From positions 1 through 44,620 of the forward strand of contig CAYVAZ010000004.1 in the NCBI GenBank assembly GCA_964449065.1: a stretch of 44,620 nucleotides of DNA, read 5' to 3'. Below, piece by piece: positions 21,001 to 33,000 of the stretch (position 1 is the first letter of the stretch; each line of letters opens with the position of its first letter). Position numbers: made by a program. This stretch comes from an uncultured bacterium (lineage in GTDB: Bacteria > Hinthialibacterota > Hinthialibacteria > Hinthialibacterales > Hinthialibacteraceae).

Positions 21001-24000
21001 TCTCAAGAAGAATTGCGCAGCAAAATTCATATCCCAAGCGAAGCGCAACCGCAAGGAACGACAGACCTACGCGGTAAAATATTTATTCCCAGTGAAAGCA
21101 ATACTCCTTCCAAGACCACATCGCTAAAATCAAAAATCTATATTCCCAGCGAGGATGATTCCTCAAGTGATTTAAAGTCAAAAATCTACATCCCCAGCGA
21201 AAGTTAAAAGCAGATACACTCCATAAAAAAGAGGCTCGTTTCTCACGACAGGAGCCTCTTTTTTTGTATTCATACGCAACAAGTTATACCGATTGCAAAT
21301 AGAAAAACCAAGTAAATTAAGCCAATATGTGTGCAGCAAGGATGCCTGCACCACAACGATTTCCAGGCTGAATTGTAGTGCAGGCGACCTGCCTGCTAAT
21401 GTTGTATTGTAGTACAAGCGTTCCGCCTGCTAATGTTGTTTTCTCAGAAACTCAACCATACGGGATCATGAAACGGTGGGGTGATACGGTAGGATAGGCT
21501 CAAAGCGAAGCCTAGCCCACCATGACCAACTCTGCACACTCGATTTGAACCGGCATTCTTACTGCTACTTGATATTCTTTACCAAAAATTCGCCATTTAT
21601 CGCTCACCTTTCCCCACCCTCTTCCATCAATATACATCGCGTTGATAGCGTTTTTCCGCCTGCAAGCGTTGGATATAATCGGCGGCTTCTTCTTCACTCA
21701 TGCCGCCCGCGGTTTGCGCGATGGTGTGGAGCGCTTCATGGACATCCTTGGCCATCCGTTTTGCATCTCCACATACATAGAAATAGCCCCCTTCTTCCAG
21801 CCATTCATAGATTTCCCGCGCGCGCTCGACCATACGGTTTTGCACATACAGCTTTTGATCTTGATCCCGCGAAAACGCGGTATCCATTTTGGTGAGGACG
21901 CCTTCATTCATCATACGCTCAATTTCTTCGCGGTAGAGAAAGTCAGAATCTTGATGAGGATTGCCGAAGAACAACCAGTTCTTTCCGGGATTGCCGGACA
22001 TGCGTCTCTCTTCTAAAAAGGCACGGAACGGGGCAATCCCGGTTCCCGGCCCCACCATGATGATAGGTTTTTCGTGATCCTCAGGCAGACCAAAGTTTTT
22101 GGATGGAGAGATATATACCGGGACAGTTGAGCCTTCTTCGACCAAGCGGGCTAAGAAGCCGGAGCATACACCGTGATGCAAGCGGCCTTCGGTTTCATAT
22201 TTCACGACACCAACAGTAATATGCACTTCTTCCGGATGAGCGTTGGGACTGGATGAGATCGAATACAAACGGGGTTGCAGCGGTTTGAGCTGTTCGATCC
22301 ATTCTTCGGCCGTTGTGTCAACGGTTGGAAGTTCGTTCAGTACATCCAATATTTCCTTGCCCCAAATATACTCGTTGTATTTTTCTTTGTTTTCCGCTTG
22401 CAGCAATTCTTCTACCCACTCGCTGCCGGTTTTGTCATGCAGCCATTGCATTAGGCTTTTGGTTGGTTTGGATACATCCAACTTGTGGATCAACGCTTCC
22501 CGCAGGGGCATACTGCCTTCCTTGGGGATGGTGACCGCCGCGCTGCCGTCTAAATTTAACACATTGATTAACGCGTCCACTTCATCCGGACAGTTTTGGG
22601 GAACCACGCCCAAGGCATCGCCCACTTTGTATTCCATTCCCGATCCTTGCAGCGAAATTTCCACATGGCGGGTATCTTTCTCCGAACCCTCCGCGTTGAG
22701 TTTTACCACACGTTTGATGGTTGCCGGAAACGGATTGCGTTTGGAATAGCCTTCCTCTTCGGCCGCCGCTTTTCCGTTAGTGGAAGCCGCGGCCGCAAGC
22801 ACGTTTTGATCTTCGGATTGTATCGCCGGGATAACACCGGCAGCCCATTCTTCATACACATCATCATAGTCCACATCGCAATCCATGCGTTGAAAAACCC
22901 GTTGGGCGCCGAGTTGTTCCAAGCGGGTATCGACATCTTTGCCGAATTGACAGAACTGTTCGTAGTTGGTGTCACCCAATGCCAAGACGGAATATTCCAG
23001 GTGGGAAAGTGATGGGGCCGAATCGGCGGAAAGTTCTTCCCAAAAACGTTGCGCGTTATCAGGCGGGTCTCCATCGCCATAGGTGCTGGTGATGATGAGA
23101 ACTTTTTTATCGGATTTTAGATTGTTGATGGGATATTCCGCCATGTCATACACCGTCGGGGCGAATCCGTTTTTGCCGGCTTGTTTGGAAAGCATTTTCG
23201 CCAAGGCCTCCGCGTTGCCGGTTTGCGAACCAAACAGGATCGACAACGGCGTGAGCGACGCGGATGCCGCCTGCCCAATTTGGGGTGCTTCCTGCCGGGA
23301 AAACACACCGGCCAAAAAGCCGTTTAGCCACGCGCGCTGTTCCGGCGAGAACGGCGCGTGGTCCGGTATGGATGGGATCTGATTCGCCATAGTCAATTCC
23401 CTTAATTCGAAAAGAGTTCTTGCAGTTCACCGGCGTCATGACGGCGGGTAAACGCCGCAAACGATTCGCCTTTGTTTCGGTTTTCGAGGTACACATTCAG
23501 CACCTGTTCAAGCAATTTCGGGACGCGGGAAAATGGGATGCCTTTAAATACCTCTTGGGCGATGCCTTGGTCTTGATCGACTCCACCACCGAAGACGATG
23601 TTGTAGCCTTCGACCTGTTCGCCGTTTTCGGTAACCTTGGTGCCAAGCAAGCCGATATCGCCGCAATAGTGCTGCGCGCACGAATGCGGGCAGCCGGTAA
23701 GATGAATGTTGATGGGTTGATCGAGATTCACGCGCCCGTCTAGGTAACTCGCTAGTTCGACCGCTTGGCCTTTGGTGTTTGTCGATGAAAACTTGCAGCC
23801 GGTATTGCCCGTGCAGGCAATGAAGCCGCCGGTAATCGCGCTGGCTTTGATATCGAAGCCGGCGTTTTTTATCATCCGTTCAACGGATTGCAAATGGGTT
23901 TCATTTATATTGGGGATAATCACGTTCTGCCAAACGGTCAGCCGCAACTCACCCGAACCGTATGCTTCCGCCGTTTCGGCAAGGATTCGCATTTGTTTGG

Positions 24001-30000: not shown

Positions 30001-33000
30001 TGGTTCCACGGTTCGCCCACGCAATAGCCTTGGATGGTTCCCTGCTCAAGAGTGGCCGGCATTTGCGGCGGCGGAGTGACAGAAAGTAATACATCCGCGT
30101 CGGTGGTTCCGGTCGTGTCCCCGCCTGTGTAATAGCCCGGGCTGATGCCGGATGCCGCCAGCCAGTAGCGGATTTCGTAGTTGTGCGTGGAAACCGGAAA
30201 CACCATCCCCATGCGTAGTGGATCACCCGCCACTTTAAACTCTTCCACAATCGGTTTGAGAGAATCAGCGGATATGGGATGCGGCGGTTTATCCTGCTGT
30301 AACTTGGGATCATTCTCCTGCATCTTCTCCCAAATTTCATTCGATACCGTGATCCCGTTGCCGTTTAAATCCATACTAAACGCCGTGATGATGTGTGCCT
30401 GCGAACCGATACCGACATACGCGCCGATGGGCTGCCCGGCCAGCATGTGGGCTCCATCCAACTCTCCACTGATGACACGGTCCAGCAGCACCTTCCAGTT
30501 CGCTTGCGCTTCCACTTCCACAAACAAACCTTCTTCGAGGAAATAGCCCAGCTCCTTCGCGATCACAATAGGCGCGCAATCGGTCAGTTTAATGAAGCCG
30601 AACTTCAAATCACTTTTTTCGACGTCCAATAAGTCCGCTTGCGTTGGGTATGTCAGAAATAAAAAAGAAAAGAATACAATTCCAATCTTTAACAAACACG
30701 GTTTATTTGTCCGCTTGGATGACCACATAGCCATTCTCCTTTTTGTTTTAAGCAATCAAACTGAAAAGGTGCAATATGCATACCACTTTAAAGATAACGC
30801 ATATAAGGTTTTTGATTTTCAAGAGTTACAGTTTGTATAAATTTGTCATGACCGGCTTCATGAAGAGGCGGTTGATCAAAAATCAGCAACGATTTGCATT
30901 ACCGCGTATGAAGTCCAGCACTTTCCTATCCATGGTTTTTGACTGTACACAAACTTTCCTCATTCCATTCGCTTAATCTTTTCATTTCATTGTTGAATCT
31001 CTAACATAGTTTGTTCGAATATAAACCATAATTCATTCCTTATTACGATGGGATCCTCTCCCGTGGGTTCACTACTATGTTCCGCGTTTACGTTCGGATC
31101 ATTTCTTCTATCGCCGTGATTTCGGATTTAAATAGAATAAAACACATATTTTACATGCATCTTTACCGCTTCCGGCATCAGCAAAAACGAATTCAAACGT
31201 GTATAGAATTGGCAATAGCGTCTATTGGAATCGAAATTGCTTATGCAGCCATCATGATGAATATGCCGGAAACCGCAAATGTACATACCGCCGCAAAACG
31301 CCGAATGGTTATCGTCGGCAACGGCATGGTGAGCTATAAGCTGTGCGAACGCTTGGTTTTTTATGATGTTGCAAAGTTATATCAAATCGATGTGTTTGGC
31401 GAAGAACCCCGGCCCGCCTACGATCGGGTTCATCTCACGACATTGTTTCAAGACCGGTCCCCAAAAGATTTATTGCTGGCAGACAGCCAATGGTATCAAC
31501 AGCACGGCATTCAACTCCACACCAACATGCCGGTGGAAAAAATTGACCGCACCCGCAACGTAATCTTTACGGGTGGGAATCGAACCGTCCCGTATGACAT
31601 ATTAATCTTAGCGACAGGTTCGCATCCCTTTGTTCCCCCCTTTCCCGGAAACGACCGTAACGGTGTGTTTGTCTACCGCACGGTTGAAGATGTGCAAGTC
31701 ATTCAAGCCTACGCGTCAACCAAAAAACGGGTTGCGGTCCTAGGCGGTGGATTGTTGGGGCTGGAAGCCGCCAAGGCGCTGCGCGATATGGGATTGAAAA
31801 CCCACATTGTAGAGCGCGCGGATTTTTTAATGCCGCAACAGTTAGACAAATCGGGCGCGCGTTTATTGCAGCGCGGGATTGAAAAGTTGGGGATCAAAAT
31901 CTATACCGGACGCTCTACCAAAGCGATTGAACCGCATGAAGATGAACTGTTGCTGCGCTTTCAGGATGGCGACTGCTTGGCGGTGGATATGGTCGTAATC
32001 TCAGCCGGAATCCGCCCCCGCGATGAATTGGCGAAAGAATGCGGCTTGTTGTGCGGTACACACGGCGGAGTCATCGTTAATTCAGCCCTGCAATGTTCTG
32101 ATAAAAATATCCACGCCATCGGTGAGTGTGCTTGCTATGAAGGGGCTGTATATGGGTTAATCTCGCCCGGATACGAAATGGCGAATGTATTGGCCCAGCG
32201 TTTGGCCGGGGATTCGGCTGAATTTACGGGCGGTGATTCATCCGCCCGCTTAAAGCTTATGGGTGTGGAAGTCAGCCATTTAGGGGCAGGATTACAGCCC
32301 GGCGACTTCTACACATATCAAGATCAACATTCCTACCGACGCTGCGTGTTAGAGCATGGCCGCTTAATCGGCGCGATTGCGGTCGGAACTTGGAGCGAAT
32401 TGCCCCGCGTCCAAGAAGCCATTACCAACCATGAAGTAATTTCCCCACGATCCACAGAGCGGTTTACAAAAACAGGAAATCTATTTGTTGAGGACGAATC
32501 GCTTTCGTGGTTAGACCGCCTCCCCACTACAGCCCGTATATGCAATTGCATGAATGTTACCAAAGGAGAATTACTAACCGCTTATGCGGCCGGGTACACC
32601 TCTGCCGATACGCTTTCCGAATATACCGGGGCCTCCACGGTATGCGGTTCATGCCGCCCGCAACTTGAAGAGTTGGCAGGCAGCCAGTCTACGGTTTCCG
32701 CTAATGTATGGAGCAGCCGCGTGCTGTTGGGGATATCGCTGGTTTCATTGCTGATGGCGGCCGCGTTATTTTTGGCGCCGCCGGTACCGGTTTCTCAAAC
32801 CGTTCAATCCACACTGCATACGATTGAAATCTTGTGGCGGGATGGTTTTTATAAGCAACTCACCGGCTATACGATTTTATCGCTCTCCATCATCTCATTG
32901 ATCTTTTCACTTCGAAAACGGATTCGCTCGTTCTCGTTTGGTAAATACAATTATTGGCGAATTGTACACACTTCCGGCGGGCTGTTGGCTTTGATCATGA

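Follow-up and report, generated by a model that had tools for sequence, protein, structure and literature searches.

Nitrate assimilation is described in textbooks as the work of two separate enzymes, in the course of which the toxic nitrite must stay low, and ferredoxin is the electron donor of NirA in plants and cyanobacteria. In the extracts of the literature available, NirA is described as a separate polypeptide, and ferredoxin dependence is ascribed to it. The Bradyrhizobium NirA (bll4571) is characterised as putatively ferredoxin-dependent (extract of PMC4724949), and bll4570, which adjoins it, carries the annotation of a sulfite reductase flavoprotein and increases along with nirA (log2 4.8 versus 5.0; extract of PMC4926349). 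In Mycolicibacterium smegmatis, the NADPH-dependent diflavin nitrate reductase NasN (Tan et al. 2020) is reported to receive the electrons of NADPH via its diflavin domain (extracts of PMC11162112 and PMC7816997). In the sulfite reductase of E. coli, the siroheme enzyme CysI is fed by the diflavin reductase CysJ, whose octamer-forming leader is a predicted helix-turn-helix with the key residues Tyr39 and Phe40 (extracts of bioRxiv 10.64898/2026.04.08.717228 and PMC11195156). This leader joins CysJ to CysJ, and the N-terminal 80 residues of CysI bind the FNR domain.

In this study, we analysed a window of 44,620 nucleotides (contig CAYVAZ010000004.1, positions 1 to 44,620) from an uncultured member of the Hinthialibacterota and compared its nitrate-nitrite locus with these systems. 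As in E. coli, the locus pairs a siroheme enzyme with a diflavin reductase as its likely feeder, but the substrate here is nitrite, and the siroheme enzyme carries an attached Mo enzyme. It resembles NasN in the clade of its Mo module and in the type of its diflavin donor, a comparison made through members of the Nas+CysJ clade. NasN is a Mo module fused to its donor without a nitrite reductase, whereas the Mo module of the present protein is joined to NirA, and the diflavin reductase is a separate ORF after the stop codon in all three genomes concerned (the present one, G000, as well as G022 and G006). With the NirA family that includes bll4571, compared via the NF007126 model, the locus shares a nitrite-type active site and an adjoining flavoprotein gene (cf. 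bll4570); unlike the described stand-alone proteins, NirA is here the C-terminal half of a fusion.

The fused gene and its two catalytic halves

The fused assimilatory nitrate reductase-nitrite reductase gene (23402..27265, minus strand) is a single open frame of 1287 aa counted from the first ATG, with the Pfam domains Molybdop_Fe4S4 (1-53), Molybdopterin (58-488) and Molydop_binding (585-691) in the Mo half and two NIR_SIR_ferr and two NIR_SIR domains in the nitrite half. The claim of an earlier note that nitrate and nitrite reductase form a single polypeptide is borne out by this frame, by the Pfam domains and by the cofactor ligands, which were checked one by one and are all present. The 1270-aa call of that note with its start at 27214 had to be corrected: of the four [4Fe-4S] ligands it keeps only one, leaving out Cys8, Cys11 and Cys15. 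We place the start at 27265 because the N-terminus is kept in the proteins P0007, P0008 and P0009 and in G022; the ribosome site at this ATG is weak in all three fusion genomes (-0.7, -1.5 and -2.3 kcal/mol). The first 17 residues were also clipped by gene callers in four of the seven full-length database entries, which hides the [4Fe-4S] motif.

An assembly join is an unlikely source of the fusion, since the junction is common to relatives that are 51-77% identical and a contig of run X2 appears to run across it. This contig, with three differences (25042, 25045 and 25139), was placed over about 25004-25244 by means of distance-to-end values and comes from one study and possibly from the source sample; no insertion, deletion or joint was listed for this run within the fused gene. 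Run X3 gave no contig here, and the other two runs, X2 among them, show one loose contig end at 24099. Scans for promoters and terminators gave chance-level counts (7 versus 11.9 and 16 versus 13).

The Mo-bisPGD/[4Fe-4S] nitrate reductase module comprises residues 1-698 (25172..27265, minus strand) and aligned with NapA (2jio) at an E value of 1.6e-138. With the corrected start only, this alignment contains the four-Cys [4Fe-4S] motif and the conserved Lys (C8, C11, C15, C43 and K45), and the Mo ligand C136, followed by M137, is identical to that of NapA, as are the active-site residues Q332 and R339. In the Nap/Nas type the Cys Mo ligand is followed by Met, in formate dehydrogenases by His instead. 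Phylogenetically, the Mo half groups with Nas+CysJ fusions, to which it is 53-60% identical, and with stand-alone NasN-type subunits (SH-like support 99; FastTree, 104/239 rows). Thus, of the former description as NasA/NarB-like, nitrate reductase stands, while the generic NasA/NarB label gives way to the NasN clade. The Mo half stays below the threshold of the NasC equivalog NF047855 (542.8 bits, cut-off 1100).

The siroheme/[4Fe-4S] NirA core comprises residues 761-1287 (23405..24985, minus strand), and the NirA half passes NF007126 (PRK09567) with 853.8 bits against a cut-off of 523 over model positions 3-588 of 595. Alignment with tobacco nitrite reductase (3b0g) showed that the Cys ligands C1151, C1157, C1192 and C1196 are present, as are the substrate-site residues R802, R890, K931 and N933, which are of the nitrite type. 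Asn versus Lys at the second site separates the nitrite from the sulfite type; in the NirA modules of the retrieved loci, each of the 82 LPRK sites that were counted has Lys-Phe-Asn, and a separate CysI-type sulfite reductase on contig C15 of the same genome has Lys-Phe-Lys. A reading of the NirA half as a CysI sulfite reductase hemoprotein was rejected (NF010029, 178 versus 457; Asn933 replaces Lys). PF01077 matches just two genes in the whole genome, namely the fusion and one on C15.

The diflavin reductase, the linker and the proposed helix pair

The CysJ-like diflavin (FMN/FAD/NADPH) reductase gene (21627..23396, minus strand) probably begins with the ATG at position 23390, within a few bases of the preceding fusion stop. 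Its product has flavodoxin, FAD-binding and NADPH-binding domains (three Pfam domains), passes TIGR01931 (685.5 bits, cut-off 668.15) and NF004859 but not NF008197 (549 versus 838), and matches the E. coli sulfite reductase flavoprotein 6efv at an E value of 1.3e-131. Among the 35 phylum genomes, the gene was found in the same three that have the fusion, directly downstream each time; 11 others have a distant, unclassified siroheme-reductase match without a CysJ-like gene. In the best 80 of 590 genome-scan loci, a same-strand flavodoxin-bearing gene, in some cases a flavodoxin-only gene of about 195 aa, accompanied 68 of the 80 unfused GTDB NirA loci and was adjacent in 60. The donor role that had been suggested from adjacency is therefore supported beyond it by the co-occurrence and by these neighbours, and we regard the CysJ-like protein as the likely donor. 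NirA+CysJ single-chain entries (P0022, P0031, P0033, P0040 and L149) may be read-through gene calls and were kept out of the evidence.

In a structure model of residues 1-1200, with only eight fused relatives in the alignment, both domains were confident, the linkers 704-720 and 739-754 had a pLDDT below 50 and the pTM was 0.63; on this model, the two halves look flexibly tethered rather than joined by a rigid nitrite channel. Between the linkers lies helix A (residues 721-738; 25052..25105, minus strand), which corresponds to a helix conserved at the start of stand-alone NirA proteins and is proposed to serve in docking. Its proposed partner, the related helix B, lies N-terminally in the CysJ-like protein (23298..23363, minus strand), where the flavodoxin domain is preceded by only one helix. 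Helix B falls in the octamer-forming leader region because the TIGR01931 match runs from residue 18, which is model position 23. When counted with patterns that were derived from the same sequences, 77 NirA proteins have helix A and none has helix B after it, 61 CysJ-like proteins have helix B and none has helix A before it, and the tandem A-then-B is found in 61 of 89 stand-alone Nas tails (0 of 8900 shuffles) and, as a further likeness to NasN, in 55 of 81 NasN linkers (0 of 8100 shuffles). The predicted fold of the stand-alone Nas P0137, obtained without contact output, has tail helices at 735-750 and 770-784 with a pLDDT of about 68-86. The distribution of the two helices over the NirA, CysJ-like and Nas proteins suggests a split docking pair, A on NirA and B on CysJ, related to the E. 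coli leader; unlike in E. coli, there is one helix on the CysJ-like protein and a related helix on the nitrite reductase. On sequence grounds, we lean slightly towards the CysJ-like donor being held by the pairing of the two helices. A complex prediction with two copies each of helix A (40 aa) and helix B (36 aa) each with a 39-row alignment, gave a score of 0.06 and a mark of 0.32, an outcome that weighs on binding in neither direction.

An internal in-frame ATG, Met710 (25136-25138), is preceded by a purine-rich, ribosome-site-like sequence (25146-25153; together 25136..25153, minus strand) and is the candidate start of a free NirA of 578 aa. Met at the old nirA start is kept in all nine fusion proteins, in a linker that is only 22% identical; Met 5-20 residues before helix A occurs in 9/9 fusion proteins versus 7/70 stand-alone Nas tails. 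A ribosome-site-like sequence precedes the internal Met in all three genomes, and that at Met710 is better than that at the first ATG. Because of this conservation in a poorly conserved linker and of the ribosome-site-like sequences, free NirA may also be made. However, the ribosome-site measure gives false positives, since an impossible start in G022 scored -11.2, and, as the nine fusion proteins are kin, the Met could have persisted as a relic. We consider the chances evenly balanced that Met710 also starts a free NirA, which would raise nitrite over nitrate reductase and limit nitrite build-up.

Distribution and probable origin of the fusion

The fusion is as rare as the earlier note stated: an unbroken open frame runs across the junction in three of 35 phylum genomes, and two word-seeded searches (best 120 matches each) yielded seven full-length and two fragment clusters. 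In a search of 1.84 billion representatives, a single stretch covering both halves was found, among the 150 best, for P0002 and P0005 alone. A junction pattern scan of a metagenome collection gave no match; a profile scan of it found at least 62 loci, none of those listed being fused, and in six of the 62 listed, unfused nas-nirA pairs overlap by 4 bases. None of the best 80 of the 590 genome-scan loci was fused either, and no triple Nas-NirA-CysJ fusion was found among the matches listed (proteins up to 2253 aa). Locus L033 gave a match of fusion length, but consists of two genes. Neither the fusion nor the helix pair nor the internal start was found to be described in the main texts of the open-licence literature, in agreement with the earlier search, and the extracts of PMC13381448, PMC9324843 and PMC6400420 contain no Nas-NirA fusion of this type.

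Other one-chain fusions exist. P0009 is a nitrate and nitrite reductase (Nas-NirA) with a Chthoniobacterales-like NirA; P0023 (Nas-BFD-NirA), P0220 (Nas-NirB, Nitrospiria) and P0248 (Nas-NirB-Rieske) are known as single protein sequences only; and five clusters of 1960-2093 aa have the order Nas, two cNMP, BFD, FAD-binding and NirA, a type of about 2075 aa with fragments named Methylocystis. No papers on P0009, P0023, P0220, P0248 or the Methylocystis-type fusions were found in the open-licence literature. The Methylocystis-type and Nas+NirB proteins show that the fusion principle is recurrent and not unique. In the trees (FastTree and a 29-row IQ-TREE), a single clade of the present fusion and P0009 was rejected (AU p 0.015), and the remaining fusions have different Mo or nitrite reductase lineages, which points to separate origins. 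By this comparison, similar fusions appear to have arisen at least four times. The present one most likely arose when the nas stop was lost in a coupled nas-nirA-cysJ operon.

Proposed mechanism and meaning of the locus

Upstream of the fusion, on the minus strand, lie genes for a nitrate ABC transporter ATPase of the NrtC/D type (27372..28166; TIGR01184, 346.5 bits, cut-off 291.8), an NrtB-like permease (28178..29308; TIGR01183, 163.9 bits, under the cut-off of 209; BPD_transp_1) and an NrtA-like substrate-binding protein (29370..30755; NMT1_2, 312 bits), and NrtA-like genes that are 77-84% identical adjoin the fusion in G006 and G022. The nearby gene g00167 (31077-33245) encodes FAD/NADH, rubredoxin-reductase C-terminal and BFD domains, as well as hydrophobic stretches towards the C-terminus; its product appears to be anchored in the membrane and linked to a 10-heme cytochrome. 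It had been called NirB-like, a label that does not hold: it is without a NIR_SIR domain and cannot reduce nitrite, and its TIGR02374 match covers only positions 1-466 of 794. Regarding cofactor supply, siroheme methyltransferase, MoaC, MoeA and MoaE were found in the present genome and MoaA was not (86.7% complete); G006 (86% complete) yielded neither MoaA nor MoaC, and both are present in G022 (95%).

The best explanation of the locus, and in our judgement a probable one, is an NADPH-driven assimilatory pathway from nitrate to ammonium that is formed by the fusion and the CysJ-like donor. Nitrate would be taken up by the ABC importer, reduced to nitrite at the Mo half with two electrons and further to ammonium at the siroheme half with six. 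The electrons of NADPH would enter the CysJ-like protein at FAD, move to FMN and be handed singly by the mobile flavodoxin domain to the [4Fe-4S] cluster in one half or the other. The flexible tether would keep the nitrate reductase close to its nitrite-reducing partner and to the donor that both share, with no sealed channel. Counting against this reading are the missed cut-offs of the NasC model and of NF008197, the gaps in the moa genes of two genomes, the weak ribosome site of the first ATG and the ferredoxin dependence ascribed to Bradyrhizobium NirA.

It is also conceivable, though unlikely, that the fusion works with ferredoxin or the NADH oxidoreductase g00167 as its direct donor, and that the CysJ-like protein only reduces this donor or works for the sulfite reductase encoded on C15. 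Ferredoxin is the established donor of plant and cyanobacterial NirA and is described likewise, as the putative donor, for Bradyrhizobium (PMC4724949, in extract); the CysI-type gene has no adjoining CysJ, the assembly has only one CysJ-like gene, and g00167 adjoins the cluster in G000 and G022 and its kind adjoins nirA in L047 and L063. However, across the 35 genomes the CysJ-like gene tracks the fusion and not the sulfite-reductase-like genes, and no g00167 was detected in G006 (86% complete); in its full architecture it accompanies only two of the best 80 of 590 GTDB NirA loci, and it seems bound to the membrane and to its cytochrome.

The two remaining readings concern the tether itself. 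That the loss of the nas stop was a near-neutral accident, after which the tether is of no benefit and the cell chiefly makes free NirA starting at Met710, would agree with the better ribosome site there than at the first ATG, the disordered and poorly conserved linkers, the pTM of 0.63 and the unfused operons with the same gene order. We consider it improbable, as the frame stayed open in proteins that are only 62% identical and come from three genera, every ligand of the Mo half was kept and similar fusions arose repeatedly. A rigid packing of the halves that channels nitrite between them is the least probable of all: the linker length is similar across relatives, but its sequence is poorly conserved and both linkers are of low confidence in the model. 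The NADPH-driven pathway with a flexible tether remains our preferred reading.

A more far-reaching proposal, which we put forward tentatively and think rather less probable than its opposite, is that one gene gives both the full enzyme and, from the internal start, a free NirA, both clipped to the NADPH diflavin reductase by the split CysJ leader helix pair. If true, the common bacterial NirA family labelled ferredoxin-dependent in Verrucomicrobiota, Acidobacteriota and rhizobia would be a two-subunit NADPH-dependent nitrite reductase that is built like sulfite reductase and assembled differently. The helix pair bears on the electron source of NirA in non-photosynthetic bacteria such as Bradyrhizobium and on the assembly of sulfite reductase through its leader peptide. 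Moreover, a natural one-chain enzyme with a two-gene electron path would be a compact module in which it can be asked whether tethering or the enzyme ratio controls nitrite leakage, and which may also be useful for transferring nitrate use to other hosts.

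The fused nitrate/nitrite reductase gene

The fusion gene occupies 23402-27265 on the minus strand as a single frame of 1287 aa, in which, according to the ORF and Pfam analyses, a complete molybdopterin oxidoreductase (residues 1-691) is followed by a two-repeat siroheme reductase. This bears out the earlier note, which had placed both enzymes in one frame. The start that it proposed, 27214, would lose three of the four [4Fe-4S] cysteines; because these are retained in the protein clusters P0007, P0008 and P0009 and in another genome of the phylum, G022, the first ATG is the correct start. 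The same N-terminal clipping was found in four of the seven full-length database entries (P0001, P0002, P0004 and P0006). The rarity that had been claimed was also observed here: 3/35 phylum genomes carry the junction as a single open frame, and both searches of the 5.8-billion collection agreed on few clusters, seven full-length and two fragments, among the best 120 listed in each. When residues 88-1287 were compared with 1.84 billion representatives, only P0002 and P0005 matched in one stretch across both halves among the best 150 listed. The linker is apparently bridged by a contig of the public sequencing run X2 with three base differences and zero frameshifts. The fusion of two known enzymes is real and rare and appears to be intact, and no description of it was found in the open-licence literature searched.

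Both halves, which had been called complete, keep their cofactor ligands. Over its whole length the molybdenum half could be aligned with NapA (E 1.6e-138), and C8, C11, C15, C43, K45, the Mo ligand C136 and its neighbour M137, Q332 and R339 are all conserved. It scored below the NasC cut-off. A FastTree phylogeny built from 104 of the 239 Mo modules (every fusion and locus row, plus 22 of the 81 NasN-type fusions and 22 of the 89 stand-alone subunits) placed it among NasN-type proteins and away from the usual Nas of the Verrucomicrobiota and Acidobacteriota. The second half passed the NirA model NF007126 (853.8 vs a cut-off of 523) and could be aligned with tobacco nitrite reductase, in which alignment C1151, C1157, C1192, C1196, R802, R890, K931 and N933 were kept. 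At the substrate-site position of N933, nitrite reductases have Asn and sulfite reductases have Lys; Lys was found there in the CysI-type hemoprotein gene of the same genome (C15:11073-12779; 7074-8780 in locus L114), which lies beside 2-oxoglutarate dehydrogenase genes and has no adjoining CysJ. An AlphaFold2 model of residues 1-1200 gave two confident domains (mean pLDDT 87) and low-confidence linkers (704-720 and 739-754) with a single helix between them (pTM 0.63), the simplest reading of which is that a flexible tether would join the halves.

The probable CysJ-like donor and a proposed split helix pair

The gene directly downstream of the fusion (21627-23396, minus strand) was confirmed as a complete diflavin reductase by its domains, family models and match to E. 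coli SiRFP. It occurs in 3/35 phylum genomes, exactly the fusion carriers and directly downstream every time, and is absent from 11 others that have a distant siroheme-reductase match. Among the best 80 of 590 GTDB loci with unfused related NirA, a same-strand flavodoxin-bearing gene was present at 68 and adjacent at 60, several of these neighbours being flavodoxin-only genes. Three neighbouring genes encode a NasN-type Nas, CysJ and NirA at L068, L076 and L084, which are Chthoniobacterales loci. NasN is reported to be an NADPH-dependent enzyme with a fused diflavin domain (PMC11162112, PMC7816997), the Bradyrhizobium NirA is described as putatively ferredoxin-dependent with Flp dispensable (PMC4724949), and its neighbour bll4570, annotated as a sulfite reductase flavoprotein, is induced along with nirA (PMC4926349). 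The CysJ-like protein is well supported as the putative NADPH diflavin donor of the fusion. Of the cofactor genes, those for siroheme methyltransferase, MoaC, MoeA and MoaE are present; a search of this assembly, which is 86.7% complete, gave no MoaA, and G022 has it.

Residues 721-735 are 76% conserved among the fusions, compared to 22% and 42% in the flanks. They belong to a helix (A, 721-738) that also begins stand-alone NirA, and the CysJ-like proteins begin with a related helix (B) that has a proline-rich motif ahead of it. The helix A profile, for which 54 NirA N-termini served as training set, matched 77/79 NirA (training rows included), 44/70 CysJ-like N-termini, 44/89 stand-alone Nas tails and 8/81 NasN linkers, while the controls gave 0/2400 shuffles, 0/79 catalytic bodies and 1/3673 other ORFs. 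Helix B followed A in none of the 77 NirA with helix A, and A preceded B in none of the 61 CysJ-like proteins with B; the tandem A-then-B was found in 61/89 Nas tails, 55/81 NasN linkers and 0/17,000 shuffles, the patterns having been derived from the same sequences. According to one study, the E. coli CysJ octamer forms through the leader, a predicted helix-turn-helix that is both required and sufficient for it (bioRxiv 10.64898/2026.04.08.717228), and the CysJ model matches the window's CysJ-like protein from residue 18 on. We infer that helices A and B are two halves of a CysJ-leader-like element, predicted to join NirA with its donor, unlike E. coli sulfite reductase, in which CysI is described as binding the FNR domain (PMC11195156). 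In the Verrucomicrobiota loci L061, L065, L073, L077, L078, L086, L087, L091 and L097, the gene of ~195 aa after nirA is a flavodoxin without the FAD/NADPH part; in L077 and L078 its helix B has diverged, changing together with helix A.

Neighbouring genes in the window

A divergent five-gene cluster (31077-36227, plus strand) encodes an FAD/NADH oxidoreductase, a cytochrome c with 10 CxxCH motifs, a Tll0287-like protein, a small cytochrome c and a single-domain globin. Its first gene, g00167 (31077-33245; 2/35 phylum genomes), which had been called NirB-like, has a BFD domain and a hydrophobic C-terminus and is not a NirB because it lacks a siroheme domain. The set lies beside nirA in L047 (5/5 genes) and L063 (4/5), and possibly serves NO detoxification or membrane electron transfer linked to nitrate use. 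At 14518-20398, cyanase (cynS) is encoded together with an Alginate-export-family porin and a second NrtABC-like transporter, a set that probably lets the cell take up and use cyanate; its porin and cyanase genes recur near nirA in L075 and L096. Past the CysJ-like gene, 21300-21440 is probably a short repeated element: its contig depth is higher, it carries a promoter-like motif repeated 34 bases apart, and public runs show small insertions in it.

Likely origin of the fusion and a possible second start

In a tree that keeps the long rows P0039 and P0051, eight fusions form a single clade (support 99) among Verrucomicrobiota NirA; this placement and the patchy distribution in the phylum (3/35) suggest that the fusion may have been transferred into the Hinthialibacteraceae. 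P0009 clusters with the Chthoniobacterales, and one clade for all fusions was rejected (AU p 0.015, 29 rows). Other one-chain nitrate/nitrite reductases were found in P0023, five clusters of 1960-2093 aa, P0220 and P0248, and therefore the fusion principle is recurrent. The five (P0012, P0013, P0015, P0016 and P0020) combine nitrate reductase, two cyclic-nucleotide-binding (cNMP) domains, BFD, an FAD-binding reductase and NirA, lack helix A, and are full length in ENA and Logan, with cluster fragments named Methylocystis sp.; perhaps they are self-contained, cyclic-nucleotide-regulated nitrate-to-ammonium enzymes. P0220 (1535 aa, Nitrospiria) apparently joins nitrate reductase to NirB, and P0248 (1737 aa) apparently adds a Rieske domain, each being a single protein sequence.

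Unfused nas-nirA pairs with a four-base overlap, some followed by cysJ, were found in 6 of the 62 metagenome loci listed, and such a pair is therefore the likely ancestor of the fusion. All nine fusion proteins have a Met 5-20 residues ahead of helix A, at the stand-alone NirA start (Met710 here), compared to 7/70 stand-alone Nas tails (4/16 with long linkers). Among 193 low-identity alignment windows, only seven, overlapping and at the linker, hold a Met in 7/7 full-length rows. In the three phylum genomes with the fusion, the purine-rich stretch upstream of this ATG pairs with a generic anti-Shine-Dalgarno motif at -7.9, -6.6 and -8.8 kcal/mol, ranking 1/31, 3/32 and 2/21 among in-frame ATGs. 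Pairing as strong as -8 is seen at 1.8% of internal ATGs and pairing as strong as -6 at 7.9%, and the fusion's first ATG gives -0.7 to -2.3. As the fusion rows are related by descent and the pairing measure yields false positives, the Met may be a relic of the old nirA start. It may equally serve as a second start giving free NirA. The proposed split helix pair and this putative start are the parts that would surprise a specialist; if used, the start would supply extra nitrite reductase, which would fit its 6-electron load vs 2 for the nitrate reductase.
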